64,000 bases of DNA from Heptranchias perlo. Taxonomy: Eukaryota. The DNA lies in the NCBI RefSeq assembly GCF_035084215.1, contig NW_027138569.1:310001-374000 (forward strand), read 5' to 3'. Positions 3,762 through 54,365 of the stretch are shown piece after piece (within the stretch, counting starts at the first letter, position 1; each line of letters starts with the position of its first letter). The notes beneath the pieces were generated by a model that saw only the letters and a program-made list of their open reading frames with translations, was not told the origin of the DNA and ran no database searches. The position numbers and the translations under genes are program-made.

Positions 3762-4079
3762 TACAACTTACTCCACCGATCATCAGTCTCCTCTACTCTG
3801 CAAGTGACGAACTGACAGCAAAGGGTTTTGTGCAACTGGTTTGCCTCATCAGCGAATATCAGCCAGAAAGCATTGCAGTGAGCTGGCAGAAAAACGGAAA
3901 CGCTGTACAATCGGGCTTTACAACCACATCCCCAGTTAAAAATTCGAATGGTGATTTTAGCTCCACGAGTCTCCTTAAAGTCACCCTGCAGGAATGGAAC
4001 AGCGGGTCTCTTTACAGCTGCCAAGTGTCCCATTCTGCAACCAACAGTAACCAGCAGAAAGACATTAGAAAAACATCAG
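3762..4079 (+). CDS. IgNAR: IgNAR heavy chain constant exon C1
   Basis: Acceptor ttttctcAG (3760-61), donor G|GTGAGA (4080); 318 nt, phase 1/1. Translates (V)QLTPPIISLLYSASDELTAKGFVQLVCLISEYQPESIAVSWQKNG...DFSSTSLLKVTLQEWNSGSLYSCQVSHSATNSNQQKDIRKTS, a C1-set Ig domain (C-W-YSC) matching remembered shark IgNAR C1 (FVQLVCLIS, YSCQVSHSAT). Confidence 0.95.
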
Positions 4080-4868
4080 GTGAGAAAATGCAACCAAATT
4101 CACAAGCTTGCACAGGTGAAACATGTTGACTTTCTTTCTCAGTATTGGATTAGTTGGGATGTTATTGTGATAATTTATCTGTGCCAGCTTATGGTGCAGT
4201 GAGACAGTAAAGATAGTTGGGGATGTTTCAGCAGCAATGGCTGAGGTTCCTGAAGGTGCTCGCTGCCAGGCGGATGTTGCAAAAGGCATGACTATGAGAT
4301 CTTGACAAATACATGAATATTATTCTATGGTCAGGGTAACACATTGATCAAACACTTTTATGATATTGCAAGCAATTTACAAATAATTGTGATACATCCT
4401 ATTTAATTAATTCACCAGATCAATCCACAGGAAACAGAGCAGAAATGTATGTTTTACACACTAGGGATCAAACTTTAACAATGCGGTTCTGTTACTTTTT
4501 ACATTTGTGAGGATTTATTGTGTGTGATACTGGATATCAGTACAAAAATGTGTTTTAAAAAATGAAACGGGTGAGAGACGGACGGAGATAGAAACGAGAA
4601 AAGCAGAAAGAAAGAGGGAGAGATAGACAGAGAGGAGGTGCTGTATAAAGATTGAACCTACAGATACGGTCACAAAACCCGCAACAATAAGCTGTTCTTC
4701 CTTTTAGAAAAATTGTTTAAAAGACACGGGTAAGGGCCGGGGAATACGACTAAGTGGATAGCACATTCAGAGAGCCAGCAGACACGATGAACCGAATGGC
4801 CCTCTGAGCTGTAGAATTCAGTCAATCTTTCTCTCTTTCTTTCTCTCCCTCTCTCTCTCTCTCTCTGT

Positions 4869-5045
4869 CATGATGTGGAGATGCCGGTGATGGACACGGC
4901 TGGACAAATGTAAGGACTTGCACAACATCAGTTTATAGTCCACCAGTTTTATTTTAAATCACAAGCTTTCGGAGCTTACCTCCTTCGTCAGGTGACGAAA
5001 ATAAAACTGTTGGACTTTCACCTGGTGTTGTGCAAGTCCTTACAT
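4869..5045 (-). mobile_element. Short fold-back Penelope pseudo-LTR derivative inserted in a (CT)n tract
   Basis: Starts TGATGTGGAGATGCCGGTGATGGAC (reverse complement of the element end at ~36580-36606). Inverted arms ATGTAAGGACTTGCACAACA...TTTTATTTT and AAAATAAAA...TGTTGTGCAAGTCCTTACAT flank the hammerhead. Confidence 0.8.
4959..4995 (-). ncRNA. Minimal type I hammerhead ribozyme (antisense, IgNAR C1-C2 intron)
   Basis: Reverse complement reads TCAC-CTGACGA-aGGAGgtaagCTCC-GAAA-GC-TT-GTGA: perfect stem I TCAC/GTGA, stem II GGAG/CTCC and intact core. Confidence 0.72.
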
Positions 5046-5595
5046 CTCTCTCTGCTGTCTCTCTCTGTGCCTCTCTATCTCTGTCCCTCTCTCTCTCTCT
5101 CTGTCTGTATCTCTCTCTCGCTCTGCTGTCTCTCAATATCTGTCTCTCTCAATTTGTCTCTGTTCCTTTCTCTCTCTGTGTCCCTTTCTCTCTCTCTGTG
5201 TCCCCCTTTCTCCGTCTCTCTCTGTCTTGCTCTCTCACCCTGTTTCTCTCTAACTGTTCGCCTGTCTCTTCCTTTTTCTTTCTCTCTGTCCTTCTCTCTC
5301 TGATTCTCTCTCCCTATCTGTCTGTCACGCTCTGTCTCTCCATGTCCCTCTCTCTCTGTCTCTTGTTTCTCTCTCTCTCTCTTAGTTTCGTTGAGTTGTA
5401 CATAGTTTTGATTCGACTCAACATACGCGCAAACACCAAAATTATTTTTAAAAATTCAATAATAATCAGTAAGATACATGGTCACACCTTGCCGTGTTAT
5501 GGATTATCAATGAAATTAAAATCCTTGTTAAATTTCCGAAATCATCAACACTAAATCATCGCCCCGATTCTGAATCTCTCGTTTCTCACTGACAG

Positions 5596-5898
5596 AGCTC
5601 GCGGTATTTCTCAGAGACCCTTCCGTTGTCGAAGTTTGGCTCAATAAAACTGCCACCCTGGTGTGTGAAGTGGTCTCTACGGTTCCCACGGAGGTTACCA
5701 TCTCTTGGACAGTGGGTGGAAAGATAAAGAATGAAGGAGTTCAAATTGAACCAGCTCAAAAGGATGGAAACCAATACCTGACCATCAGCCACTTGACCAG
5801 CAGCGTGGCAGAGTGGGATAGCGGGGTTGAATACTCATGTTCGGCACAACAGGATCAATCATCTCCTCCGGTATTAAAACGAACCGGAAAGACAAGAG
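5596..5898 (+). CDS. IgNAR: IgNAR constant exon C2
   Basis: Acceptor ctgacAG (5594-95), donor G|GTGGGT (5899); 303 nt. (E)LAVFLRDPSVVEVWLNKTATLVCEVVSTVPTEVTISWTVGGKIKNEGVQIEPAQKDGNQYLTISHLTSSVAEWDSGVEYSCSAQQDQSSPPVLKRTGKTR. Confidence 0.95.
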
Positions 5899-5974
5899 GT
5901 GGGTAAAATATCTATAGACATGTTTTCGAATGGCAATGGATGGAAGACTAACACTTATTGAACTTCCGTTACAG

Positions 5975-6292
5975 TCGAGCCAGTCAAACCAAAGCTCCGC
6001 CTCCTTCCTCCACCACCAGAGGAGAGTCAAAGTAGGAGCGCCCCGACTCTCACATGTCTGATAACAGGATTCTACCCTGACAACATAATCGTTTCCTGGG
6101 AGAAGGACGGAGCTGCTTTAAGCACGAACGTTACCAGTTTCCCCAGTGCTCTTGAACAGGACCTAACCTTCAGCACAAGGAGCAACCTCATTTTGCCTTC
6201 AGAGGAATGGAAGAAAGGATCAAGATACACCTGTACCGCCTCACATCCCCCTTCACAATCCGGCGTGAAGGCGACCATCCGCAATCTGGAAG
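5975..6292 (+). CDS. IgNAR: IgNAR constant exon C3
   Basis: Not in the ORF track; translated by hand. Acceptor ttccgttacAG (5973-74) after a 76-bp intron, donor G|GTACGG (6293); 318 nt. (V)EPVKPKLRLLPPPPEESQSRSAPTLTCLITGFYPDNIIVSWEKDGAALSTNVTSFPSALEQDLTFSTRSNLILPSEEWKKGSRYTCTASHPPSQSGVKATIRNLE. Confidence 0.95.
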
Positions 6293-8897
6293 GTACGGAC
6301 AGTTTTTCAAAATACTTTCACACAATAATGATTTTTACTTAAATCTAAGGCCAAACCAGAACCACACACGCACTAGCGATCACATCCCTCTAGGTTACAG
6401 ATATAACAACATTTATGGCTATCAATTAATGCGGCTTTAATTCTCAGGCAGCAATTAGACGATAAAATGATCAGCACTCTGAATGTGTTCGCCGCCACAA
6501 GCTATGTGAGGACCCAATAGTAAGAAGGGGCAGGATAAGGATCTATTTAACCTCACTGCACGGTACCCTGGTGATTGTGGGCTTTCTTTAAACAACAATA
6601 TGCAGTATCTGAAGACACTAAATCCACTTTTCACCGGGCAGAGTGTTCCATACTATGTGGGGAGAAGACTTTGAGTGGCGTTTACTTCACTCTGCACTGC
6701 CTTGTTTCGGTTTAGCTGGAAACTGAGTGGTTGCCAGCAGCGAAATTCAAAACAAAAAAAACAGCCATTTCACAGGGCACCCAACCAATTGATGTGAGGA
6801 ACATTGTACATTTCAAGTGTTCAAATCTTCTGAACCGCCAGCGCTATACGTTAGAGGAGGAGACAAATAACGTGTTAATTGACTGAACCCAATGATGTGA
6901 CCTTTTGTTTTGATGAGTGTAAACTCCGCTCGTGTGATTAGTTTGTTTCAGTTCGAATTGTTTTTGTTCAATCAAATTGACGCATTTGCTCAATAACTGG
7001 CCCAGCACCACCGTGCTCTGGGTGGGGAAACTTTTAAACTTCTCTCGATCTTTGGTTGGATCCCCGATTACTGCTGAGTTCGTTGATCTCACCTGGTGGC
7101 GTTCGGGACCTTATAATCAGACTTAGTGTCCATAGATTTGTGAAGTGGCAATAGCGCATTGTTCTGCTCCTGGTCTATGGTAAGTGCATGTATGGTCACT
7201 CTGGGAACAACAAGATAGGAGTTGCCTGCGATGCCCTCACTGTACAATGGCCTACTGATACTGCATAGGAGGACTCAGGAAGTATAGACCATTGGATGAG
7301 GTACCGGAGGGCAACCTATAGTTCTCATACACCAGTGAGGAAAAGAGGGGATATAATAGCAAACACTGTTATTAGACTCAAACTCGGGCTCCTCCGATTG
7401 GTAAGCAGCTGTACACTATAATGGCCCTGTACACTAAGAAGTTCCTGTGTTTCACCTCCCGATCTTCACTGAGTTAACTGATCTCAACTGGTAGATTTTT
7501 GGAAGTTACGGTGGACTACGCACATCCGGGTTACTGTGCATACACCCGTTCTTGTTTCTTCCTCCAATTGGGGGAGACCTAGTTGAAGTCGGGGTGTTCA
7601 CACCTCTGCTGACGGCAGGATTGGAATGGGCTCTGTTGCTTTCACCGTAGAGTAGGCTGTTGAATCGCACTCTTTCTGCTGATTCACGAAGAATGGCCAC
7701 TTGAGAGATACTCAAGGTGACCTTCCTCTGTGAAGCCTGTACCGGATTAGCAATAAAACACCGACATTTATTTCCCACCTTTAAGCGCCTCATACCGTTT
7801 CACAGAGTTTTAAGGAAAACAATCACCAATATGGGAGATTATGAGGTGTGACCAAAATCTTGTTGGGTTTGGAAGAGGGTCTGAAAGTGGGAGCAGGAGG
7901 AGAAGAGGCGGAGAGGATTAGGGAGGAAAGTTCAGCGCGGGACCTGGGACCTAATCAAGGTATCACCACCTTCCGTATGTATGAAAATAGTCTTGTCCGT
8001 TTTGTTATTTCTAGTCCTATTCCCGGATCATTAGATTTCCACAGAATGTTCAGCGGCCTGAAGTTCACCCAACACCTACACGGTTTATTTCAGCAACTCA
8101 GGTGAATGAGAGTTAAAGTAAAAGAACATCGTTACAACTACAATCACCACACTTGTTGCTGCTATAAGAACTTCTGTACGTTTTCACTCAATCTTTGGCT
8201 CCCTCAGATATCAAGGTTAAGTCCCTGAATTATGCCTTTTGGTTGTCGCTCAATTCTGACCACTCCAAAAACAGTCTTTGACAAATGTGAAAATGTCAGT
8301 TGACTTTTCCGTGATTTATAACATGAAGCAGCAGCGGATCGACGCTACAATGTTGTGGAGAAGTACGAATAATTATCCTCCTGGAAAGCCGGCACCATTA
8401 ACCGATGGTACCAAGGCCATTTTCCAGCGGTTGCCCAATTTATTATCAGGTCGTTGATAATTCGTGCTCTGCACAGACCCAGAAAGTTGATATTTAATGA
8501 TGTGTCTTCTGAAAATCGAAGTGCATTTAGGTGTCTACTCAAATAGCCCCAGTGGCGGCATAAAACCTAACGTGGACTTCCCAGAACAATAGTTTGTACC
8601 AATTTCACTCCACTGTCACGGTGATTGTTAGACGATCATTAATAATATCCTGTAAAGCGTACATCAGACTTTTCCTCCAGATCTGCTGCTCCATAAACTG
8701 TTACATGATTCTCCCTGTTTGGGTTTGGTTCCAATTTTCCAATGTGGCATCGTACTGCCCTCAGGTGCAAGCCATGCATTAACAGACTTTTAAACTACCT
8801 GGAGGAGTCTGGGATGCTTCCTTACTTCGTTCGTTGGGAACCCAGGAATATATCCCAATTAGTACAGTTAAAATTCAAACTAACCTTAGCATGTTGT

Positions 8898-9097
8898 AAA
8901 TCAGAAATTAGAATAGAAATTGCGAGAAAAACAGAGCAGGCCCGTCAGAATCTGTAAAGATAGATAGTGTTGTAAGATCCTTACTGAGAACTCAAACCCA
9001 CTCTCTGGAACTGTCTGACCTCCTCAGCCCCACGCTGTCCTTTCTGTGTAGAGATGCCGCAGAGCGACTGATTTTTGCAGCATTTTCTGTTGTTATT
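8898..9097. mobile_element. Degenerate Penelope-derived short inverted element
   Basis: Ends resemble the common shark pattern AAAACAG...CAGCATCTGT / AGATGC...GCAGCATTTTCTGTT; the centre is decayed. Confidence 0.4.
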
Positions 9098-11810: not shown

Positions 11811-12156
11811 AATGCTCGTATAATCAGTGAAACATAGTCCGGGATCCTGCCATTCACCCCACGGGTAAAGAATAGCGAGAAAAATGTAAGCGGTTTGAAA
11901 CTGTTGCGTCACAACAGTATCAGCGTTATCCAAATATGAGATTGTCCCCAACTCTTAGCAAAATAACATCAGGCCACAATGAAAACTCCCAAAAGAAAGA
12001 ACATTAAAGAAATCCATGGCCCCGCAGAGAAATGTGTAAACTCTCTCAGATAACAATTCCAATTGTCCAAAGACGCAAATTACCAGCAGACGGGAATGGG
12101 AAGTGAAGGACGGACAAGAGACAGACTCAGTTTAACAAATATTGTTCTCTTTCCAG

Positions 12157-12477
12157 TTGACGGAATGTATCCTCCTAAAGTCTACGTCCTGCCTCCATCA
12201 GCGGTCGAGATTGACACTGAGAAGACGGCAACCCTGGTGTGTTTAGCAACCGGCTTTTACCCTGCCGAGATTTACGTCGCGTGGATGGCCAATGACACCC
12301 TTTTGGATTCAGGTTACACCACCCAACCGGACACGGAGAAGAAAAGTGGTTCCAGCTCCATTGTCAGCAGACTGAGAGTCACCGCAGCGGAGTGGAACGG
12401 CGGGACCACTTACTCCTGTTTAGTGGGACACCCGTCTCTCACAATGAATTTACACAGAAGTATAAATAAATCTTACG
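12157..12477 (+). CDS. IgNAR: IgNAR constant exon C5
   Basis: Acceptor ttctctttccAG (12155-56); (V)DGMYPPKVYVLPPSAVEIDTEKTATLVCLATGFYPAEIYVAWMANDTLLDSGY...EWNGGTTYSCLVGHPSLTMNLHRSINKSY. Internal donor TAC G|GTAAAC at 12478 would be used for splicing to TM. Confidence 0.95.
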
Positions 12478-12539
12478 GTAAACCTACTTTAGTTAATGTT
12501 TCACTAGTTCTAACCGACAGTTTTCAATCGTGTACATAA
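12478..12539 (+). CDS. IgNAR: IgNAR secretory tailpiece (read-through of C5 donor)
   Basis: (G)KPTLVNVSLVLTDSFQSCT-stop: N-glycosylation sequon NVS and penultimate Cys, the canonical Ig secretory tail. Confidence 0.95.
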
Positions 12540-18589: not shown

Positions 18590-19965
18590 GGATTACTTCG
18601 CATCCGTCTTCATTAGAGAAGAGGATGCTGCCATTGCAGCGTTAAAGGAGGAGGTAGTAGCGATATTGGATAGGATAAAAATAGATAAAGAGGAGGTACT
18701 TAAAAGATTGGCAGTCCTCAAAGTAGAACAGTCACCCGAACAAGATGGGATCCATCCAAGATTAGTGAGGGAAGTAAGAGTGGAAATTGCGGAGGTTCTG
18801 ACCACAATCTTCCAATCCTCCCAAGATATGGAGACGGTGCCAGAGGGCTCAAGGATTACAAATGTTAACCCCTGTACAAAAAAATGGAAAAAGAAAAACC
18901 CGGCGATTACACGCTGGTCAGACAAACGTCGGTCGTGCGGATAATTTCAGAGACAATAACCATGGCATTTGGAAAAGTTTGGGCTAATAAATGAAAGTCA
19001 GCAGGCGTTTATTAAAGGCAAATCGTGTTTGACTAATTTGATTGAGTTCTTTCCTGAAGTAGCGGAGAGGGTTGATGAGGTTCGTGAGGTTGACGTTGTG
19101 TATATGGACTTTCAAATGCCATTTGATAAAGTACCGCACAATAGGACGTGTTGGCAAAATTAAATCCCGTGGGTTTGAAGGGGCAGTGGCAGCGTGGACG
19201 TAAAAATTGGCTCAAGGACAGAAAACAGAGAGTAGTGGTAAATGGTCGTTTTTCAGACAGAGTGGTGTTCCCCAGGGGTCAGTATTAGGACCACTGCTCT
19301 TTTCGATATATATTAATGACCTGGAACTGGGTATACAGGGTACAATTTCAAAGATTGCAGATGACACGAAACTCGGAAATGTAGTGCTAAAGTAAAGACA
19401 TTATGCTAAACGTTCATAAAACGCATGTTAGGCTTCAGCTGGAGTATTGTGTGGAATTCTGGACATCACACCTTAGGATCACGTCGAGGCCTTAGAGGCG
19501 GTGCAGAAGAGATTTACTAGAATGGTACCAGGGATGATGGACTTCAGTTATTTGGAGCAAATGGAAAAGATGGGTTTGTTCCCTTTAGAACAAAGAAGGT
19601 TTAGGGGAGATTTGATAGAGGTGTTCAAAATCATGATCGGTTTTGGTAGAGTAAATAAAGGTAACTGTTACCAGAATTGTTGGGAACCAGAGGACACAGA
19701 TTTACGATGATCAGCAAAGGAGCCACACGTGACATGAAGAAACACTTTTTGATGCAGCGAGTTTTAATGATCTGGAATGCACTGATGGAAGGGTGGTGGA
19801 AACAGATTCAGTGGTAACTTTCAAAGGGAATTGGATAAATACTTGAAGGAAAAAAAATGTACCGGGCTATGGGCAAAGAGCAGGTTGGTGGGTCTATTTG
19901 TATAGCGCCTGAGGAACGACGGGCCGAAAGGCCTCCTCCCGTGCTGTACTGTGATATGATACTTC
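18590..19965 (+). mobile_element. CR1 LINE ORF2/3' fragment
   Basis: [64 protein letters not shown]. Confidence 0.9.
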
Positions 19966-32800: not shown

Positions 32801-32894
32801 AATACGTCCATGAAAGTAAATCTTTTGTGAAACGTAGTCACCAAAAATATGTGCAAAACTATATTGTTCTGAGAAACTCATTCTAAGCCGAAGC

Positions 32895-34400
32895 CAATCC
32901 TCTGTATACATCTACTGCTCTTGCGATGTGTCCCAACATACCCGATGTATATATCAGCTGCTCTTGCAATGTGTTTTTTTATTCGTTCATGGGATGTGGG
33001 CGTCGCTGGCAAGGCCAGCATTTATTGCACATCCCATGAAGGTTGTTTTTGTGACTGGAAGCCTGTGGCCAGTGGGGTACCACAGGGATCGGTGCTGGGT
33101 CCCTTGCTGTTTGTGGTCTACATTAATGACTTGGATATGAATGTAAAAGGTATGATCAGGAAGTTCGCTGATGATACAAAAATTGGTAGGGTGGTAAATA
33201 GCGAGGAGGATAGCCTCAGTCTGCAGGACGATATAGATGGGTTGGTCAGATGGGCGGAACAGTGGCAAATGGAATTTAACCCGGAAAAGTGCGAGGTGAT
33301 GCACTTTGGAGGGACTAACAAGGCAAGGGAATACACAATGAATGGGAGGACCCTAGGCAAGACAGAGGGTCAGAGGGATCTTGGTGTGCAAGTTCACAGA
33401 TCCCTGAAGGCGGCGCGACAGGTCGATAAGGTGGTAAAGAAGGCATATGGGATACTTGCCTTTATTAGCCGAGGCATAGAATATAAGAGCAAGGAGGTTA
33501 TGATGGAGCTGTATAAAACACTGCTTAGGCCACAGCTGGAGTACTGTGTGCAGTTCTGGTCGCCACACTACAGGAAGGATGTGATCGCTTTGGAGAGGGT
33601 GCAGAGGAGATTCACCAGGATGTTAACAGGGCTGGAGCGCTTCAGCTATGAAGAGAGACTGGGAAGATTGGGTTTGTTTTCCTTGGAGCAGAGGAGGCTG
33701 AGGGGGGACATGATTGAGGTGTACAAAATTATGAGGGGCACAGATAGGATGGATACTAAGGAGCTTTTTCCCTTCGTTGAGGGTTCTATAACAAGGGGAC
33801 ATAGATTCAAGGTAAAAGGCGGGAGGTTTAGAGGGGATTTGAGAAAGAACTTTTTCACCCAGAGGGTGGTTGGAGTCTGGAACTCACTGCCTGAAAGTGT
33901 TGTGGAGGCAGGAACCCTCACAACATTCAAGAAGCATTTGGATGAGCACTTGAAATGCCACAGCATACAAGGCTACGGACCAAATGCTGGAATATGGGAT
34001 TAGAGTAGACAGGGCTGATGGCCGGCGCGGACACGATGGGCCGAAGGGCCTCTATCCGTGCTGTATAACTCTATGACTCTATGACACGTGTCCTAACACA
34101 CCCTCTGTATACATCCACTGCTCTTACCACGTGTGCTAACACACCCTCTGTATTCATCCACTGCTCTCACCATGTGTCCTAACACACACTCTGTACACAT
34201 CCACTGCTCTTGCCATGTGTCCTTACATATCCTCTATATACATCCACTGCTCTTGCCATGTGTCCTAACATATCTTCTGTATACATCCACTGCTCTTGCC
34301 ATGTGTTCTAAGACACACTTTGTATTCATCCACTGCTCTTGCGATGAAATCAACAAAACCTTTGTTCACATCCACTGGTCTTGCGATGTGTCTGAACAAC
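32895..34400. repeat. 43-bp minisatellite split by LINE insertions
   Basis: ACACCCTCTGTATACATCCACTGCTCTTGCCATGTGTCCTA-like units at 32895-32975 and 34085-34400. Confidence 0.8.
33038..34084 (+). mobile_element. Young 5'-truncated CR1 LINE (open RT C-terminal frame)
   Basis: [44 protein letters not shown]...GYGPNAGIWD uninterrupted; 3' tail of 8-bp repeats ACTCTATG. Confidence 0.95.
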
Positions 34401-34602
34401 GTATTTGTTTTTTAAATCTTTCCTCACACATTCTCACAATGAATGGTGACGTTTCTATCCTCACTCCCGAGTCTTTGACCAAAAGTTGCCATTTTCAGTT
34501 TCTTCATTGTACACTTGTGTCCTTTGCTCTGTTAGCCCAATATGAAATAGAAATCACATTCTTTACTGTCATATTCGCATTCTCATCCCACGTAATCCCC
34601 GC

Positions 34603-36225
34603 GTGGGAGACTTCTACTGCCTCCCAAAGATACACAAAGCCAACACACCCGGACGTCCCATCGTATCAGGCAACGGAACCCTGTGTGAGAACCTCTCTGG
34701 ATACATCGAGGGCATCCTGAAACCCATCGTACAGGGAACCCCCAGCTTCTGTCGTGACACTACAGACTTCCTACAAAAACTCAGTACCCACGGACCAGTT
34801 GAACCAGGAACACTTCTCACCACGATGGACGTCTCGGCACTATACACCAGTATCCCCCACGATGACGGCATCGCTGCGACAGCATCAATACTCAACACCA
34901 ACAACAGCCAATCTCCGGAAGCCATCCTACAACTCATCCGCTTCATCCTGGATCACAATGTCTTCACCTTCGATAACCAGTTCTTTACCCAAACACACGG
35001 AACAGCCATGGGGACCAAATTCGCACCCCAATACGCCAACATTTTCATGCACAAGTTCGAGCAGGACTTCTTCACTGCACAAGACCTCCAACCAACACTA
35101 TACACCAGATACATCGACGACATTTTCTTTCTATGGACCCACGGCAAGGAATCACTAAAGAGACTACACGATAACATCAACAAGTTCCATCCCACCATCA
35201 AGCTCACCATGGACTACTCCTCAGAATCAGTTTCTTTCTTGGACACACGAATCTCCATCAAAGACGGGCACCTCAGCACCTCACTCTACCGCAAGCCCAC
35301 GGACAACCTCACGATGCTCCACTTTTCCAGCTTCCACCCTAACCACGTCAAAGAGGCCATCCCCTATGGACAGGCCCTGCGAATACACAGGGTCTGCTCA
35401 GACGAGGAGGAACGCGATGGACACCTACAGACGCTGAAAGACGCCCTAGTAAGAACGGGATATGACGCTCGACTCATCGATCGACAGTTCCGACGGGCCA
35501 CAGCAAAAAATCGCATAGACCTCCTCAGGAGACTAACACGGGACGCAACCAACAGAGTACCCTTTGTCGTCCAGTACTTCCCCGGAGCGGAGAAACTACG
35601 CCATGTTCTCCGCAGCCTTCAACATGTCATCAATGAGGACAAACACCTCGCTATGGCCATCCCCACACCTCCACTACTCGCCTTTAAACAGCCACCCAAC
35701 CTCAAACAGACCATCGTTCGCAGCAAACTACCTAGCTTTCAAGAGAACAGCGTCCACGACGCCACACAACCCTGCCACGGTAACCTCTGCAAGACATGCC
35801 AGATCATCGACACAGATACCACCATCACACGAGATGACACCACCCACCAGGTGCATGGTTCATACTCCTGTGACTCAGCCAACGTTGTCTACCTCATACG
35901 TTGCAGGAAAGGATGCCCCAGAGCATGGTACATTGGCGAGACCATGCAGACGCTGCGACAACGGATGAACGGACACCGCGCAACAATCGCCAAACAGGAG
36001 GGTTCCCTCCCAGTCGGGGAACACTTCAGCAGTCATGGACATTCATCCACCGACCTTCGGGTAAGCGTACTCCAAGGCGGCCTTCGAGACACACGACAAC
36101 GCAAAATTGTCGAGCAGAAATTGATAGCCAAGTTCCGCACCCATGAGGACGGCCTCAACCGGGATCTTGGGTTCATGTCACGACACACGTTACCCCACCA
36201 GCGAACAAATGTTATCTGTTTTTAA
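34603..36225 (+). CDS. Penelope-like reverse transcriptase + GIY-YIG endonuclease (N-terminally truncated)
   Basis: FYCLPKIHK..PGRPIVS, MDVSALYTSIP, GTAMGTKFAPQYANIFM, RYIDDIF, SFLD, YRKPT; Cys/His motif CHGNLCKTC; VVYLIRC...WYIGET...R...H, E...I...GLN. No internal stops over 540 aa. Confidence 0.95.
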   Translation: MGDFYCLPKIHKANTPGRPIVSGNGTLCENLSGYIEGILKPIVQGTPSFCRDTTDFLQKLSTHGPVEPGTLLTTMDVSALYTSIPHDDGIAATASILNTNNSQSPEAILQLIRFILDHNVFTFDNQFFTQTHGTAMGTKFAPQYANIFMHKFEQDFFTAQDLQPTLYTRYIDDIFFLWTHGKESLKRLHDNINKFHPTIKLTMDYSSESVSFLDTRISIKDGHLSTSLYRKPTDNLTMLHFSSFHPNHVKEAIPYGQALRIHRVCSDEEERDGHLQTLKDALVRTGYDARLIDRQFRRATAKNRIDLLRRLTRDATNRVPFVVQYFPGAEKLRHVLRSLQHVINEDKHLAMAIPTPPLLAFKQPPNLKQTIVRSKLPSFQENSVHDATQPCHGNLCKTCQIIDTDTTITRDDTTHQVHGSYSCDSANVVYLIRCRKGCPRAWYIGETMQTLRQRMNGHRATIAKQEGSLPVGEHFSSHGHSSTDLRVSVLQGGLRDTRQRKIVEQKLIAKFRTHEDGLNRDLGFMSRHTLPHQRTNVICF

Positions 36226-36477
36226 TATAATGGGTCATTTGCTGGCTCTCTCTGCCTTCCGGATGTTTCTGCCTCTCTCTGTGTTTTTTTTTTTTCTCTG
36301 TTTTTTTTCCCTGTTTGTTTTTTTGTTGAATGTGTATTCGGAGGTTCTGCAGGTAACACCTCTCTGTCTGAACACGGTGATTGCCTTGGCAACGGGCAGT
36401 TGCAGGGGCAGTCTGTAAACACCATGTATTATTGTTCAATATGTATAAATGCGTAGGCTTCAAGGAGATCTTGAAAC

Positions 36478-36518
36478 ATTTGCCTGAGGAAGGAGAAAAT
36501 CTCCGAAAGCTTGTGAAT
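36478..36518 (+). ncRNA. Minimal type I hammerhead ribozyme in Penelope terminal repeat
   Basis: ATTTGC-CTGAGGA-aGGAGAaaaTCTCC-GAAA-GC-TT-GTGAAT: CUGANGA and GAAA cores, stem II GGAGA/TCTCC, stem I ATTTGC/GTGAAT (with G-U pairs), helix III reduced to palindromic AGCT. Confidence 0.72.
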
Positions 36519-37069
36519 TTAAAATAAAATTGCTGGACTATAACTTGGTGTTGTAAAATTGTTTACAATTGTCAACCCCAGTCCATCACCGGCATCTCCA
36601 CATCATATATACCACGGTCTAAGAAGTAATGATGAATTTCACGAAGGCAATGGCTACTCAACAGTTTAACTGACATGTGCAGTTTTAGGCGCTCCATTAA
36701 AGAAAGAATATAAATGTCACAGACCGCGTTCCAAGTAGATTCACGAGGGGATGCCAGGAATGGAAGTTAGATCATTAAAATTGATGGGATTTTTCGAGTT
36801 GATCAGAAAAGCCGAAGAAGAGATTCATTGAGCTTTTCAGAATTCTGGAGGATTTTAATTGGATGGATAGGGAAATCTATTTCCTTTGATTGGGGAGTCA
36901 ATGATGAAGAGTGATCAATTTAAAATTGTAATTAAGAGAGTCAGGAGACCGGCTTTGAGAAATCGTTATAATTGGAGGGTTGTTTGAGACGCAACACGGT
37001 CAATGGTTGTGGCAAAGAACAGGAGAGTGTTAGGGGAAAACTAAATAATTATAAGAAGGAGAGAAAATA

Positions 37070-44760: not shown

Positions 44761-44820
44761 ACCTACCCGATAACACTTTTGACCAGTTTGCTGTCGTCAG
44801 TCCCTGTCTCATTTAATTAA

Positions 44821-45020
44821 GATGTGGAGATGCCGGTGATGGACTGGGGTGGACAAATGTAAGGAATCTTACAACACCAGGTTATAGTCCAACAAATTTA
44901 TTTTAAAATCACAAGCTTTCGGAGATTATCCCCTTCATCTGACGAAGGGGATAATCTCCGAAAGCTTGTGATTTTAAAATAAATTTGTTGGACTATAACC
45001 TGGTGTTGTAAGATTCCTTC
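44821..45020. mobile_element. Fold-back Penelope pseudo-LTR derivative with 76-bp perfect inverted arms and TSD
   Basis: Arms 44861-44936 and 44944-45019 are exact reverse complements with a 7-nt centre; flanked by the direct repeat (TC)ATTTAATTAA at 44809-44820 and 45019-45030. Confidence 0.88.
44935..44971 (+). ncRNA. Minimal type I hammerhead ribozyme in fold-back Penelope derivative
   Basis: TCAT-CTGACGA-aGGGGAtaaTCTCC-GAAA-GC-TT-GTGA. Confidence 0.68.
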
Positions 45021-45029
45021 ATTTAATTA

Positions 45030-48000
45030 AAGTTACCTTACCATAATTTAAAATCTTAGTAACTGTTACGTTTCTCCGTTTCAATCCTAATATTGAATTC
45101 GATCATATTATGACCACTGACAGAAAATGTTCACTTACTGTTGGATTTTCAAGTCTGTCTGGCTCTTTATTCATTATTAATCTAGTCTGACCTGGCCTAT
45201 TGTTGGTGCGATAACATTTGGCTCTAGAAAGTTATCTTGAATGCACTCAAGAAATTCACTTCCTGTCTGACTTGATCTACTCGGCTCTTCCCAATCTAAA
45301 AGAAAAACATCTCTGCTTTTGTTACAAGCCTCTCTAGTCGCTGAATTACATGGAATTAGACAGGATTTACAGGGCATGAAACAGAACATTCGGCCCAACA
45401 TGTCCAAACCTGTGTTTATGATCCACACGAGCTCTACCCTTCTTCATCTGACCCCATCAACATATCCTTATATTCCTTTCTCCATCGAGTGTTTATCCAG
45501 CTTCGCCTTAAATACGTATTTGCTACTCGACTCAATTGTTCCTTGTGGAAGCGAGTTCCACATTCTAACCACTCCCAGGGTAAAGATGTTTCCCCGGAAT
45601 TCCCTACTGGGTTTATTGGTGACTATCTTATATTGATGGCCCCGATTTCAGGTCTCCCCCGCAAGGGGAAACATCTTCTGTTCGTCGACCCTACCAAGCA
45701 CTTTCATGATCATAAAGACTACTTTCGGTCACATTCAGTCTTGTCCTTTGAAGATAAGAGAGCCTCAGCCTGTTCAGTCTTTCTGAATAGGTATAAACTC
45801 TCAGTTCCGGTATCATCCAATTAAATATTTTTTGCAACTTCACCATTGCCTCGATATCCATTTTATAATATGCATACAAGAACTGTTCACAGTACTACAA
45901 GCGTGGTCTAACAAAGGTTTTATTCAAGTTTAAAACAACTTCCTTGATTTACAATTCTATCCTTTTAGAAATGAACACAGGAACATAGGAAGAAAGGAAT
46001 AGGATTCGGCCATTCAACCACTCGGGCCTGTTCCGCCATTCAATGAGATCATGGCTGTTCTGTGACCCATCTCGATATGCCCGCCTTAATCCCATATCCG
46101 TTATAACCTTTGGTTAAAAAAAATTCTCTCACTCTCAGATTTAAAATGAACAATCGAACAAGCATTAACTGCCGTTTGTGAAAGTTCCAAAATTTAACAA
46201 CCCTTTGCGTGAGGAAGTGTTTCCGAACTTCAATCCTGAAACCCAGGCTCTAATTTTAGGAACATAGGAACACAGGAACATAAGTAGATCATTCAGCCCC
46301 ACGTGCCTGCTCCGCCATTTGATAAGATCATGGCTGATCTGTGATCGAGCTCCATATACCTGCCTTTGGCCCATATCCCTTAATACCGTTGGTTGCCAAA
46401 AAGCTATCTGTCTCACTTTTAAATTTACCAATTGATTTGGTACCAATTGCCGTTTTGCAGAAGAGAGTTCCAAAGTTCTAGGACCCTTTGTTTGTAGAAA
46501 TGTTTTGTAATCTCACTCCGAAAAGGTCTGGCTCTAATTTTTAGACTGTGCCGCCCTCCTCCGAGAATCCCCAACCAGCGGAAATAGTTTATCTACATCC
46601 TCCATATCCGTTCCCCTTAACATCCAATAAAAGTCGATCAGATCACGCCTTAACCTTCTAAACTGTAGGGAATACAACCCCAATTTGTGTAATCTCTCCT
46701 CGTAACTTAACCCTTGAATTCCGGGTATCATTCCAGTAAACCTACGCTGCAATCCCTCCAAGGCCAATCTGTCCTTCCGAAGATGCGGTGCCCAGAACTG
46801 CTCACAGTACTCCAGGTGCGGTCTAACCAGGGTTTTGTATCGCTGCAGCATAACTTCTGCCCCCTTGTACTCCAGTCCTCCAGATATAAAGGCCAGCATT
46901 CCATTAGCCTTCTTGATTACTTTCTGCACCTGTTCATGACACTTCAATGATCTATGCACCTGAACCGCTAAGTCCCCTTGGACATCCACTGTTTAAATTT
47001 TTTTTACCATTTGGAAAGTACCCTGTTCTCTCATTTTTTTGATCCAAAGTGGATGACCTCACATTTGTCGACATTGAATTTCATTTGCCACAGTTTTGCA
47101 CATTCAGCAAATCTATCAATATCGCTTTGTTATGTTATGTTTTCATTTACACTGCTTACAATGCCACCAATTTTTGTGTACTTTGGCAAACTTAGATATG
47201 AGACGTTCTAAACCTTCATCTAAGTCGTTAATAAATATTGTGAATAATTGAGGCCCCAAGACAGATCCCTGCGGGACTCCACTAGTCACATCCTGCCAAT
47301 GTGATTACTTATCCATTATCCCTACTCTCTGTCGCCTTTCGCTCAGCCAATTTCTGAACCAAGCCCGTACTTTTCCCTCGATTCCATGGGCTTCTAACTT
47401 AGCTAACAGTCTCTTATGTGGGACCTTATTAAATGCCTTCTGGAAGTCCATATAAATAACATCCATTGACATTCCCCGTTCCACTACGTTAGTCACCTCT
47501 TCAAAAAATTCAATCAGGTTTGTCAGGCACGACACACCTTTCCTAAATCCATGCTGGCTCTCCATGATTAACTGAAATTCTCGAGGTGTTCAGTCACGCT
47601 ATCATTAATTATAGACTACAGCAATTTCCCCACAACAGATGCTAGGCTAACTGGTCTATAATTCCCCGGTTTCCCTCTCTCTCCTTTCTTAAAAAGCGGA
47701 GTGACATGTACAATTTTCCAATCCAGAGGGACAGTTCCTGAATCTGGAGAACTTTGAAAGATTATAGTTAGAGCATCCGCAATGTGCTCACTTACTTCCT
47801 TTAAAACCCTGGGATGGAAACCATCTGGTCCTGGGAATTTCTCACCCTTTAGTGGTGTTATTTTCTTCATTGCTGTTGTTTTACTTATGTTAATTTTATC
47901 GAGTCCCTGTCCCCGATTCAATATTAGTTTACTTGCGATATGCGGCATCATATCCTCTTTTTCTACTGTAAATACTGACGCAAAGTCCGCCATTTCCACA

Positions 48001-48745
48001 TTGTCATTGACAATATCCTCACTTTCAGTTTTTAAGGGGTCAACACTGCTCCTGTCCACCCTCTTTTTCCTAATATAACCATAAAAGTTATTTGTATTGG
48101 TTTTGATATCCCTTGCAAGTTTCTTTTCAACTCTCTTTTTGTAGCTCTTACTATCTGTTTTGTGACCCTTTGTTGATCTTTGTATCTTTCCCATTCTCCA
48201 GGAACTGTGCCATTTTTTTGCCTATTGTATGCCCTTTCCTTACATCTTATACTGTCACGTACCTCTTTTGTTGTCCATGACTGTTTTTTTTGGCAAGTAG
48301 AGTTCTTGCCCCTCAGAGGTATACACCCGTTCTTTATCTCGTTAAATGTTTCTTTAAACATTTTTCACTGATCATCAGTCGTTTTACCCATTAACAGATT
48401 AGCCCAGTTTACTGTGGACAGTCTCTGTTTCATCACATTGAAGTCAGCCTTACCCAAGTCTAGAATCTTATCAGCCGACTCAACTTTTTCCCTTTCAAAC
48501 ATTACATTGAACTCGATCATGTTATGGTCGCTGTTGGATAGATGTTCGCGTACAGTTAAGCCGTTATTAAATCCACTTTATTATTCATTACTTAATCTAG
48601 CATGGCTTGACCCCTTGTTGCCTTTAGGACATACTGCTGTAGAAAACTATCCAGGACACAATCAAGAAATTCACTACCTTTCCGACAGTTGCTAGTCTAT
48701 TTTCCCAATCTATGTGAAGGTTAAAGTCCCCCATTAAGTCCATTA
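45030..48745 (-). mobile_element. Cluster of nested CR1 LINE fragments (largest ~46260-48745: endonuclease end to RT to 3' end)
   Basis: - strand [64 protein letters not shown]. Confidence 0.9.
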
Positions 48746-48939
48746 TGCCATTATATCTGAGGAATGAGAGAGGCTAAGACTGTATTTGAAGCGATCTATA
48801 GGCCTGCAGATAGCAGCAGTGAAGTGACACAGGGATATGGGGGTACAGATACACAAATCACTAAAAGTATCGATGCAGGTTAACAACGCCATATCAAAGC
48901 ATCAAAGCAATTAAATAGCTAGATGTGAGTAGGCAGTGC

Positions 48940-50520
48940 AGAATTTACGGATGTAAAAATGCGGATATTGGACAAGCATGTTGCAAAGACAGATTGGTTT
49001 AATTGGGGGATTTTAACTTTCATATAGATTGGGATAAGCAGACGAGCTCGTGTCAGAAAGCAGCGAATGTCTTCAGTGTGTTCAAAACAGCTTTCTTTAC
49101 TAATATTTCCTGGAACCAACAAGGGGACAGGACATATCAGCTGTAATAATTATTAAAGTGCCAGACTTAGTTAACAGCCGAAACGTACGTGAATATTTAT
49201 CTAATACCAATCATAATATGATCGAGTTCAACGTTGCGTTTGAAAGGGAGAAACCCGTAACAGCTGCTGAGATTCTAAGTCTAGGTCAGGCCGAACTCAA
49301 CGAGATGAGACAGACAATGTCCAAATTAAACTGAGCAAATCTGTTAATGGGTAAAGATAAAGATGATCAGTGGGAGGTGTAAAAAAAAAAGAATTTAACG
49401 TGATACTGAACCAATTTATACTCTTAAGGGGCGAGAGTTCAACTTGCCAAAAAAAACATGGGCGACAAAAGAGGTAAGGGACAACATGAAAATAAAAGAA
49501 AAAGCAGACAAAAAAGCAAAAAATAGCACGGATCCTGGCGAATGGGACAGATACAAAGAAGAGAAAAGGATGACAAAACAGATAGTAAGAGCCACAAGAA
49601 GGGTCCATGAAAAGAATCTTGCAAGGGATATCTAAATCAACAGCAAAAATGTTTACAATTATAATAGGAAAACGAGGGTGAACAAGAGCAATGTGGGCCC
49701 CTTAAAAACTGATACATTGTAATTGAAAATAAAGAAATGACGTGATGTTAAACCATTACTTTGCGTCACCATTTACAGTGGAGGAAGAGGAGAGCAACCC
49801 AAGGGAATTAATTTTGCATCAGGGACGGGGACGAGCAAATTAACAGCAATGAAGAAAATAATGACACGAAAGAGTGAAAAATCGCCAGGACCAAAAGATT
49901 TCCATCTGAGGGTTTAAATGAAGTAGGTGAGAACATTGCAGATGCCCTAACTATAATCTTCCGAAGTTCTTGATTGGACAATCGCACATGTTATTCCGCT
50001 ATTTATGGAAGGTGAGAGATGGAAACCGGGGAATTATACACCAGTTAGCCTAATGTTTCTTGTCGTGAAATTACAATACTCTATATTTAAGGATAGAGCA
50101 ACTGAACACGTTAAAACATTTCAGCTGATCAGAGAGACAGAGTATCGATTAGTAACGGGTAAGTCACGCCTGACAAATCTGATTTTTTTCAAGAGGTGAC
50201 TAAAGTGATGGACAGTTGACTGTCTATGGATGTTGTTTATATGAACTTCCAGAAGGCATTGGATAAAGTCCATTATAAGAGACTGTTAGCTAAAGTTGGA
50301 GCTCATGAAATTTAGCGCAATTTATTGACCTGGTTACAAAATTGGGTGAGCGGCAGCAGACAGAGAGTAAGGATAATATGCAGGTGCTCAAATTGGCACG
50401 ATATGGTTAATGGTGTCCCACAGGGATCATTTGTTAAGGATTTAAATGACGGGATACAGAGCCACATATCCAAATTTGCCGATGGCGAAAAGATAGGCAG
50501 CATTGTAGGCAGTACTGCAC
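48940..50520 (+). mobile_element. CR1 LINE ORF2 fragment, inverted relative to 46260-48745
   Basis: GDFNF..DW, KNSTDPGEWDRYK, KPGNYTPVSL, GVPQGS, SKFADG. Confidence 0.82.
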
Positions 50521-50683: not shown

Positions 50684-51847
50684 GACTCATTATCGTTTTA
50701 TTTCTTAAATGCTCCTAACAACGCTTGCTGCGTTCCTTTAAGTTGATCACATATTTTTTCTCCAACCAAACCTTTTGAATTCTGTTCTTTTCATCACTCG
50801 CATTTTGTTCCATTTTGTTACCCAGTAACATTGATAACGTATCCCCTTTTTAACATGTTATTAGCTCAGACCTCTCTGTTTATTCACGCATCTCTTGGTT
50901 TGCAAAACTCAATTGTTTCCTATTGGAAGAATGTTTAAGTTGTACCTCACTCATGTCTTATTGAACCTTTACCAATCTGTGTTCACATTTATCTCCTGAA
51001 AATGCCACCGCAGAGTTTATAACCATTTATTTAATCTTATTTTGTTACAACCTCCCTGATTATCCCTGGAATCTCTGTCAGTGATGTGACTCATTCAGCC
51101 TTTACCCTGTTCTTTATCAATCCGGTATTTAGCCGGCCACACAGCTGGACCCGTTCAATTTGCTTTCATTCCAGCCGATTAAATGGGGCCAGTTCCACTA
51201 TCAAGCGGGAAACACACCGGCGGAGATTGGCTGGTTAAATTATCCTGTAACACCCAATGATCCCATCATTCTTTGCAAAGAAAGGGGGTTTTGAAGATAA
51301 TGATGCTTAACAGGAAATGACCCGCTTGATAGTGGAACTGGCCCCTTTTCATCGGCTGGAATGAAAGCAAATTGAACGGGTCCAGCTGTGGGTCCGGCTA
51401 AATACCAAATGGATAAAGAACAGGTTAAAGGCTGAATGGTTCACATCACTGACAGAGATTCCAGGAATAATCAGGGAGGTTGTGACAAAATAAGATTAAA
51501 TAAATGGTTATAAACTCTGCGGTGGCATTTTCAGGAGATAAATGTGAACACAGATTGGTAAAGGTTCAATAAGACATGAGTGAGGTGCAACTTAAACATT
51601 CTCCCAATATGAAACAATTGGGTTTTGCAAACCAAGAGATCCATGAATAAACAGAGAGGTCTGAGCTAATAACATGTTAAAAAGGGGATACGTTATCAAT
51701 GTTACTGGGTGACAAAAAGGAACAAAATGCGAGTTATGAAAAGAACATAATTCAAAAGGTTTGGTTGGAGACAAAAATATGTGATCAACTTAAAGGAACG
51801 CAGCAAGCGTTGTTAGGAGCATTTAAGAAATAAAACGATAATGAGTC
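50684..51847. repeat. Long inverted repeat (~526-bp arms, 111-bp spacer)
   Basis: Left arm 50684-51209 (GACTCATTATCG...ATCAAGCGGG) and right arm 51321-51847 (CCCGCTTGAT...CGATAATGAGTC) are reverse complements with scattered mismatches (~95% by eye). Confidence 0.93.
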
Positions 51848-52478: not shown

Positions 52479-53410
52479 CTAATGCTGGGAATTCTGCCGC
52501 TCTTGTCCTCGTTTAACTAATTTAAATATTAATTTGAGAGGATATTTCACCCCATTCTTCAGCTCCTCTCTGAATTTATACTGGGTCACTGCATAAATAC
52601 ACGTGTTTGTGCAGCAGCTCAACAGCAGGAGCATGTAGCTGGTTTGATCTGCGATAAACATCGTGTCATTGAAACCTGTGGAATAATAACGGTTTGTAAT
52701 TCGCACTGATAGGAAAAATAAAATATACGTCATCCATAGCAGTATGAAATTGCCGGATATCGCAAACAGTAAGATGATGGATTTTCTTCGGTTCTCCATC
52801 TCCGGATCATTGTGATTCGCATCACTCTTGCTGGCCCGAAGCCTCCTGCGGACTCTACTGGCCGCCAAAATGTTTCCGACAGTAACAGAATTGAGCAGCA
52901 ATATCAGGAATATTGGGAGCAGTGGAGTCAAACAGCGGTGAATCCATGTAAATGCTACCCATGCAGCTGAAGGATAAAAGTCTGGTTTTACACGATAGCC
53001 CCAAGCTACGTTGTCCAATGTAATGGAGGGTTCAAATGCAAAGTACCAGGGGATGTTTTTTAAACAGAACAGCGGACACAACGTTCCTATAACCGCGGCT
53101 GCAGTTTTCTCGGTGCAATATTTCGTCCTCAGCTTCTGGCAACAAATGGTTATAAAACGATCAAAAGTGAAAGCGACTGTTAACCAGACAGAGATGTCTG
53201 AGACAGCATGGTTAAGGGTAATTTGGAAAGAGCACACTGGGGTGAGGAACAGGAAGCTAGTCGGGAAATATAACTCCTTGATCCGAAACAGTACCACGTC
53301 ATTGATAATGACCAATAGATCCGCCGCTGCCATGGCCACCAGGTAGCGAGTGACACATTTCGAGAGACCGCACTTTCCCCGAGACAGGATTACAATCGTC
53401 ATCACGTTAG
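52479..53410 (-). CDS. Class A GPCR, GPR139/GPR142-like (shark-expanded family), main coding exon (end of TM1 to TM7); possibly decaying
   Basis: - strand acceptor ccttttacAG then (A)NVMTIVILSRGKCGLSKCVTRYLVAMAAADLLVII...TPVCS...SVWLTVAFTFDRF...CLKNIPWYF...PLLPIFLILLLNSVTV...DPEMENRRKSIILLFAISGNFILLW...LLSCCTNTCIYAVTQYKFREELK. DRF and NTCIY motif variants; the first exon is not clearly intact. Confidence 0.88.
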
Positions 53411-54365
53411 CTGTAAAAGGGAAAGAAACAAAAACAGTGAATCACGCATCAGGTTACAGCAAAGGAGTGAGTTCCACAGTATTTTGTGTGAAACATACAG
53501 CTTATGAGAGTATATGAGTTTGCTGATTAAATAATGACAAATAAATATTCCGAGTAAAGAGGAAGAAATGAATCAAAGACATTCTCTGAGAATTTACTCG
53601 GAACTGCTCCCGCTCTGACGCCGTAACTTCGCCAGAGGAGCAATGTAAAGCCAGCGCAGCACCCAGGAAGTTTATGGCCATTGATTAAAATCAGCAAAAA
53701 CAAAGCGAGGTCATATGTTATTAATGATTACAATGAGCAGTAATTCGGAAGATCAAATCACATAATGGAAAGAAAACGTAAACATATATTTTGCTGATAA
53801 GTAATAAATAGTGAACTATAAATTGGGAGATAATTGATCAGTGCGGAGCAATGAAAATGAAGCCAGCCCGAAATGAGGTCAATACAAAATGGGGACCATT
53901 AAGGGTGAGCTCAACTGTCTGGGTTTGGATCCGTGAGCAGGAGGAGTGAGTGGACCAGGTGGTGATAGGAAATGGTCGGAGTTGTCAGATTTTATTCTCA
54001 AAGGTTGTGAAAAAAATTGCAGCATAATTCTGCTGTCAAACACCACCATACAAGGGGACTTGTTAAGTTTGAACTCGACCAAGATGCGGCACTTTCGTTT
54101 TTCAAACCCCCAGGTGAACCGGTCACATGGTCAACAGACTTTCCCTCACTGCAAAACCCATGTCTTCTCAAAGGCAACTTCAACAGGCCAACACCATCTG
54201 GGGAAACTCCAACAATGACCACAAGGGGCAAAAGGTGAGAAATGAGCAGCAACAGACAACTTTATCTTGCTCTATTGTCCCAAAAATCAAATGTACCTTC
54301 CAAATTACAGGATGCAACAAGGGGCACAATCCCGCCCTCAGGTGGAGGTGATGGCAGCGATCCCG

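Follow-up and report, generated by a model that had tools for sequence, protein, structure and literature searches.

The locus and its Penelope-like element

The window analyzed here, a 64,000-nucleotide stretch of contig NW_027138569.1 of Heptranchias perlo, carries a truncated Penelope-like element (PLE), two short PLE copies and a number of unrelated genes and repeats. It lies within a segment that is duplicated many times on several contigs and includes an immunoglobulin heavy-chain constant exon with a secretory-type tail (12054-12539, + strand), closest to IgM/IgA heavy chains. Clustered, duplicated immunoglobulin genes are expected of cartilaginous fish, and the duplicated heavy-chain segments appear to fit this pattern. 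At 52479-53441 (- strand), a single-exon open frame of 320 amino acids belongs to the rhodopsin-type seven-transmembrane family and has no close solved structure. The remaining features are repeats. A 5'-truncated LINE-type RT fragment at 32873-34085 (+ strand), which we take to be CR1-like, ends in a short repeated 3' tail and sits inside a 43-bp minisatellite; its open frame at 32873-34003 is unrelated to the PLE. An inverted repeat at 50754-51776 has 456-nt arms that are 95% complementary and lie 111 nt apart, and nested inverted-repeat pairs at 47185-50428 (73-80%) suggest an older large inverted duplication. A long, diverged 49-bp tandem array runs from 37025 to ~41900, and other minisatellites with units of 50, 46, 62 and 19 bp occur at 2330, 27282, 15414 and 44254, respectively.

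The main PLE insertion, which we assign to family 1, was initially described as an open RT/GIY-YIG element (Table 1). Its frame is indeed open, but it begins at residue 353 of 902 (550 amino acids kept) and the copy has no 5' pLTR. The window frame has an RT match of its own, and its retained part is 99.6% identical to residues 353-902 of the intact 902-aa ORF found at other loci. There, intact units are 3086-bp tandems in which a single pLTR doubles as the 3' UTR of the ORF before it and the 5' leader of the ORF after it. At such loci (L031, L034), three ribozymes follow one another at 3086-bp spacing and the intervals hold 902-aa ORFs; exact tandems of two or three consecutive units are common in the genome. 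In intact units, 121 nt of leader, free of ATG, separate the ribozyme core from the start codon. Given its 5' truncation and single pLTR, we regard the window copy as a non-coding remnant with no partner ribozyme in cis.

Table 1. Coordinates of PLE features in the window
Feature	Position	Strand	Remarks
PLE insertion, family 1, 5'-truncated	34576..36606	+	99.5% identity to intact tandem units elsewhere
TSD TCATAT, 6 bp	34569..34574 (left); 36603-36608 (right)	+	right copy overlaps element end by 4 nt
Open, N-terminally truncated ORF	34576..36225 (frame 34546-36225)	+	~residues 353-902 of 902
RT YIDD motif	35110-35121	+	inside truncated PLE ORF
CX2-5CxxC linker	35773-35799	+	between RT and endonuclease
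GIY-YIG endonuclease core	35884-35940	+	by motif; no Pfam match
TATA-like box	36444..36449	+	shared by most sister subfamilies despite divergence of the spacer downstream; putative promoter
Predicted transcription start (TATA + 30)	36474	+	commonest 5' end of short family-1 copies
Minimal type I hammerhead	36478..36518	+	predicted cut after 36512 (U17); fits published consensus
Stem I, ATTTGC:GTGAAT	36478-36483:36513-36518	+	main-copy hammerhead
Core CUGAGGA; extra A	36484-36490; 36491	+	main-copy hammerhead
Stem II, 5 bp, loop AAA	36492-36496/36500-36504	+	main-copy hammerhead
GAAA; GCUU	36505-36508; 36509-36512	+	main-copy hammerhead
Palindromic AGCU replacing helix III	36508-36511	+	main-copy hammerhead
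Ends of tail-less arms	~36556-36575	+	second 3' end point of PLE copies
PLE tail, ~40 nt	36567..36606	+	ends at start codon of next tandem unit's ORF
Family-2 short insertion	4867..5044	-	tailed arm 4867-4995 carries hammerhead 4959-4995
Family-2 inverted tail-less arm	4998-5044	opposite to tailed arm	no ribozyme
Family-3 palindromic insertion	44818..45019	+	two head-to-head arms
Family-3 tailed arm	44818-44939	-	core incomplete
Family-3 tail-less arm, intact hammerhead	44935-44971	+	within 44818..45019
Family-3 TSD, 11-12 bp	44809-44820 and 45019-45030

The intact 902-aa protein matches RVT_1 (E=3e-10) and contains the motifs DKG, YIDD and VVY..C..C..YIGET, a CX2-5CxxC linker at residues 753-761 and a GIY-YIG core with two internal cysteines, the endonuclease being assigned by motif only. 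A search of solved structures with the PLE ORF returned nothing significant. By the criteria in the accessible text of PMC8557442, the combination of DKG, YIDD, the CX2-5CxxC linker and a GIY-YIG domain with internal cysteines indicates Neptune or Nematis, which points to a Neptune/Nematis-type EN+ PLE, as classified by motifs. The single ORF joining an RT to a C-terminal GIY-YIG domain with internal cysteines, together with tandem-derived pLTRs, inverted 5' copies, a tail at one end and a TSD, conforms to the architecture of EN+ PLEs.

The main insertion is very young, as had been proposed. Its site is empty in 6/6 paralogous segments that we fetched, three of which have 99.1-99.9% flank identity, and element sequence recurs with 171/171 nt identity at nine further genomic places. 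Some of the paralogous contigs may represent alternative haplotypes, in which case the main insertion would be polymorphic.

A minimal hammerhead and its variation

The preliminary description placed a hammerhead ribozyme in the terminal repeat of this element, and the stems, core, GAAA and GCUU were all confirmed in the 3' pLTR. The same layout recurs at 4959-4995 (-) and 44935-44971 (+), with stems and loops as claimed. The motif has the CUGANGA and GAAA boxes, an NUH triplet, an extra base before helix II and the G10.1-C11.1 pair, while helix III is absent and positions 15.1-16.1 are palindromic, with AGCU in 20/20 recurrent variants. By all sequence features examined, it is a PLE minimal hammerhead whose catalysis is predicted.

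In the proposed check by an Infernal-type model search, an Rfam scan of the window gave no hammerhead match at E<=5; its miRNA matches at 44871-45008 reflect only the long palindrome at that site. A loose CUGANGA..GAAA pattern has 11 matches in the window compared to 8.8 expected, showing no enrichment, and a window-wide comparison places two of the loose-core matches, at 19909 and 24588, outside any PLE context. Predicted folds of the motif include both stems with ordinary folding energy (z -0.55 to -1.79 relative to shuffles), and the minimum-energy fold of two copies, as in a dimer, differs from the active double hammerhead. Instead, our view that the motif is real rests on its genome-wide recurrence and its pattern of variation. 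In the genome-wide copy count, exact 28-mers number 9,225 for family 1 and 3,102 for family 3, with 0 for reversed controls, and a 20-nt tag just downstream of the ribozyme has 105,826 exact genome matches.

From 616 distinct tag-anchored copies we parsed 508, and 20 variants seen at least 3 times account for 420 copies. Across these 20 variants GAAA, the extra A and GCUU are invariant, and the core differs only at N7, save in two junction-made forms. Helix changes are mostly one-sided wobbles (C-G to U-G, A-U to G-U and U-A to U-G), alongside a G-C to A-U replacement at the fifth pair of stem II, a pair that is unpaired in 4/20 variants. In 22 ORF-linked copies, 92% of cells are paired, a value reached in 1/500 shuffles. 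The initial proposal that stems vary while pairing and core are kept therefore stands. In the covariation analysis that it suggested, pairing exceeds the shuffles, and two-sided changes occur at 3 pairs, which 78/500 shuffles equal and which is thus not beyond chance. The expectation that the core is better conserved than its flanks holds upstream, where subfamilies differ freely over the 30-40 nt preceding stem I, the TATA-like box excepted, but not downstream, where the region below the ribozyme is conserved as strongly as the core and makes the comparison with the 3' flank uninformative. We conclude that the ribozyme core and fold are, as judged from these alignments, under selection, with the reservation that a parser allowing at most one change per conserved box, combined with targeted sampling, favors conserved copies and hence apparent conservation.

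Short copies and the ends of copies

The two other hammerheads in the window had been read as separate, short derivatives, and as non-autonomous ribozyme cassettes co-amplifying with the RT-encoding element. Neither reading is supported. Both are truncated head-to-head inverted insertions of sister PLE subfamilies, and the subfamilies of both have ORF-joined members: same-strand upstream ORF matches (71-95% amino acid identity) accompany 11/30 family-3 arms, counted on the 30 exact family-3 pattern matches listed first, and 3/30 family-2 loci. ORFs of sister subfamilies are ~90% identical. Because both short copies are common to the paralogous segments, they predate the main insertion. Head-to-head PLE pairs range from tens of bases to >3 kb, and exactly one arm bears the tail in 24/25 of them. 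This structure is the known inverted-plus-tail form of endonuclease-bearing PLEs, not the retrozyme tandem.

The junctions of short copies differ from copy to copy. That of the family-3 copy in the window recurs at >20 unrelated sites, where it sits on a 3-nt homology; it was enriched by the query, appearing in 1/30 of a pattern-drawn sample (TCAC variant), and, at the 21 loci parsed out of 22, its central loop faces one way with respect to the tail in 9 and the other way in 11. Varying junctions, with the recurring one in both orientations, are what would be expected if each short copy were built anew. It is very improbable that the short copies form a self-propagating, retrozyme- or SINE-like family selected for the whole ribozyme. 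Many short copies do retain the whole ribozyme, one family-3 junction recurs as described, and PLE-derived retrozymes have been reported from vertebrates, one cartilaginous fish included, in the accessible part of bioRxiv 10.64898/2026.07.22.740005. However, short copies have no TATA box and are not tandem, their ribozyme variants are the same as those of ORF-bearing copies, their junctions are many and different, and the one that recurs does so on a short homology and in both orientations and was enriched by the query. Retrozymes are recognized as short head-to-tail tandems with a ribozyme in each unit, while both short copies in the window are single and head-to-head. We also considered and rejected stem I of the third copy as an artefact of the inversion junction, as long family-3 copies carry TCAT natively. 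Elsewhere in the genome, one palindromic insertion (L190) is centered exactly on the ribozyme's AAGCTT palindrome, 6 nt above the predicted cut. Insertions of one subfamily also follow immediately on the pLTR of another, or lie at most a few hundred bases from it (L032:7774-8302, L033:7885-8289, L038:7926-8678 and L197), hinting that PLEs target their own ends.

The 5' ends of copies pile up ~30 nt below the TATA box, 6-19 nt before the core. Among 98 arms for which the downstream tag was the sole anchor, drawn from the first 100 listed, 35 begin 0-20 nt before the core compared to 4 in the next 20 nt upstream; 5 begin inside the core or stem II (3 of these are tandem repeats of one) and 3 begin 2 nt below the predicted cut. 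In 229 arms from three subfamilies, the 5'-end rate peaks at TATA+30 (37/183 at risk, 5.05% per nt) and is 0.04-0.19% per nt >38 nt upstream. The edge is not sharp, with a shoulder of 0.5-1.6% per nt at 4-38 nt upstream that includes a cluster at the palindromic AGATCT. Genome-wide, we counted copies in which the two letters preceding a given position are foreign, using at-risk denominators estimated from 88 and 98 arms at the start of one contig. The predicted family-1 start has 843 ends, ~11% of an estimated 7,300 copies at risk, whereas a control upstream site also beginning AAA has 15, ~0.4% of an estimated 3,500. The predicted cut, the only position of its kind counted genome-wide, has 110 ends and a control position 8 nt further upstream has 107; both counts are ~0.24% of an estimated 45,000 copies, and we rejected run-off at the ribozyme cut for this lack of enrichment. 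Because ends pile up below the TATA box and not at the cut, a pLTR promoter is the likely starting point of the templates, most of which would be uncut. The predicted start would give a 131-nt ATG-free leader; no joint matching a pLTR intron was present in four contig sets, a kind of data that cannot exclude one.

Local sequence clearly contributes to this pattern. Of 30 ends inspected at -10, about 22 are fold-backs on an AAA/TTT homology; among the 8 direct ends, several have As in common with their target, and the -10 peak is inflated accordingly. One could go further and attribute the whole pile-up to homologies, palindromes, or a stall or snap-back after the ribozyme has been copied, with no transcription start involved, a view to which the 3-nt homology of most -10 ends and the secondary clusters on palindromes lend weight, as does the self-priming at palindromic junctions proposed for rotifer PLEs in the accessible text of PMC3846280. 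We consider this distinctly unlikely. Ends are ~25-fold rarer at the upstream site that likewise begins AAA, and only ~10/98 fall in the 22 nt of a more AT-rich stretch below the cut. Additionally, direct junctions follow the TATA box and not the stem: non-inverted junctions fall at -10 in family 1 and at -15 to -19 (center -16) in family 4 (13 vs 16, p=0.007), a shift that is not significant when all arms, including inverted ones, are compared (p=0.21), as an origin in sequence bias would have it.

A proposed cycle and known systems

Taken together, these observations make it probable, in our judgment, that the locus holds the 3' pLTR of a recent 5'-truncated PLE with a weakly cleaving predicted hammerhead and that the short copies are truncated insertions of sister elements, made as run-off cDNAs of those elements' own leaders. 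The pLTR TATA box would start transcription ~10 nt before the ribozyme core. The PLE protein would then nick AT-rich DNA and prime cDNA from both ends of the break, and two priming sites on the RNA, ~40 nt apart, would yield tailed and tail-less arms. Priming in the 3' pLTR would give long copies such as the main insertion, while priming in the 5' pLTR would give cDNAs of 90-135 nt that end at the RNA start and join the target, or anneal mutually, via short homologies to form palindromes. Linear ribozyme-cut RNAs would rarely be copied. The ribozyme itself may most plausibly be a slow, protein- or dimer-assisted processing switch, and we rank such a regulatory or processing role first because a cut would uncap the leader or part the ORF from the downstream priming sites.

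The published biochemistry agrees with this scheme. For the Poseidon element PAc of Anolis, the accessible text of Frangieh et al. 2024 (PMC11167929) describes internal priming at two tail-defining sites, cutting of both strands in AT-rich DNA, and a protein-assisted hammerhead whose cleavage is not needed for insertion in vitro. One observation counts against a TATA start: the sole experimentally dissected PLE promoter, from D. virilis, is TATA-less (PMC2377424). The fullest form of our proposal is a tentative one, possible but doubtful as a whole: that ~10^5 scars record a PLE cycle with a TATA start ~10 nt before the hammerhead, own-leader priming from both DNA ends and cut linear RNA that is almost never copied, so that the ribozyme would act as a brake that decaps or disarms the RNA and not as a unit-length processor.

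The ribozyme would be central if, as in the circle model of PLE insertion of Cervera and de la Pena, tandem transcripts were cut to 3086-nt units and circularized, with copying of circles giving long or tandem insertions and capped leaders still giving the short copies. Circle formation is possible in so far as ligation would erase the cut from the cDNA record, which makes the lack of cut-site ends compatible with it; the abundance of exact tandems of two or three units and the selection on the ribozyme core also speak in its favor. Yet read-through of existing tandems accounts for long copies without circles, cleavage of the anole ribozyme is dispensable in vitro and no reads begin or end at its cut in the accessible data of PMC11167929, and in the available portion of PMC4209133 the minimal hammerheads of metazoans showed poor cleavage, dimers included. 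We therefore judge a circular intermediate unlikely and retain leader run-off as the preferred account.

What PLE hammerheads do and how inverted, tailed ends arise are posed as questions in the accessible text of PMC8557442 and PMC11167929. The family described here is extremely abundant and very recently active and has intact 902-aa ORFs, which makes the start and stop points of copying accessible to population-scale statistics and provides natural material for biochemical work outside the Poseidon clade. Our counts predict capped starts at TATA+30 in each subfamily and insertion that is unimpaired by a dead ribozyme. No description of this family in sharks appeared in the literature searched, and repeat libraries (Repbase, Dfam) may hold the family.

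The motif is a further example of the PLE minimal-hammerhead class described in 2014, when Cervera and de la Pena (PMC4209133) found minimal type I hammerheads in the pLTRs of metazoan PLEs. As far as the available portion of that paper extends, its consensus matches here in CUGANGA-H, G10.1-C11.1, a 4-6-bp helix I, GAAA-N-palindrome-NUH and an AU-rich 3' flank; its turtle entry has the same GCUU and its lamprey entry the same UCAC:GUGA helix I. It also reports thousands of mostly single, truncated copies and opposite-strand pairs 100-700 bp apart. Its searched supplements contain no match for 'shark' or 'Callorhinchus', and the TATA-linked pile-up of 5' ends is absent from its accessible text. 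Abundance is higher here, with ~10^5 arms compared to 4,000-9,000 motifs in coelacanth and Xenopus obtained by another counting method.

Animal non-LTR retrozymes (Cervera and de la Pena 2020, PMC7229834; Li et al. 2026 bioRxiv), in the portions accessible to us, resemble the short copies in being short, non-coding and pLTR-related with a type I hammerhead. Retrozymes are, however, head-to-tail tandems of short units (PMC7229834), whereas the copies here are single or head-to-head with a tail and a TSD. Closer parallels lie with the EN+ PLEs. Neptune and Nematis elements, as presented in the accessible text of PMC8557442 and PMC3846280, share the order of RT, CX2-5CxxC linker and GIY-YIG domain with two internal cysteines, and EN+ PLEs share partial tandems, an inverted 5'-truncated copy, a 30-40-bp tail at one end and TSDs (Craig et al. 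2021, Arkhipova et al. 2013). A TATA and Inr-like pair has been noted in a rotifer pLTR (PMC8557442/PMC3846280). Unlike the Neptune/Nematis elements covered there, the family has no leader intron that we could see and, in the loci viewed, inserts beyond microsatellites. PAc offers the same arrangement of two reverse-transcription starts bounding a tail, AT-rich targets and a ribozyme just upstream, but belongs to a different clade: in the available account (PMC11167929) its ORF starts inside the ribozyme and its tail lies >100 nt into the ORF, whereas in the shark family the leader contains the whole of both ribozyme and tail, with the ATG marking the end of the tail.
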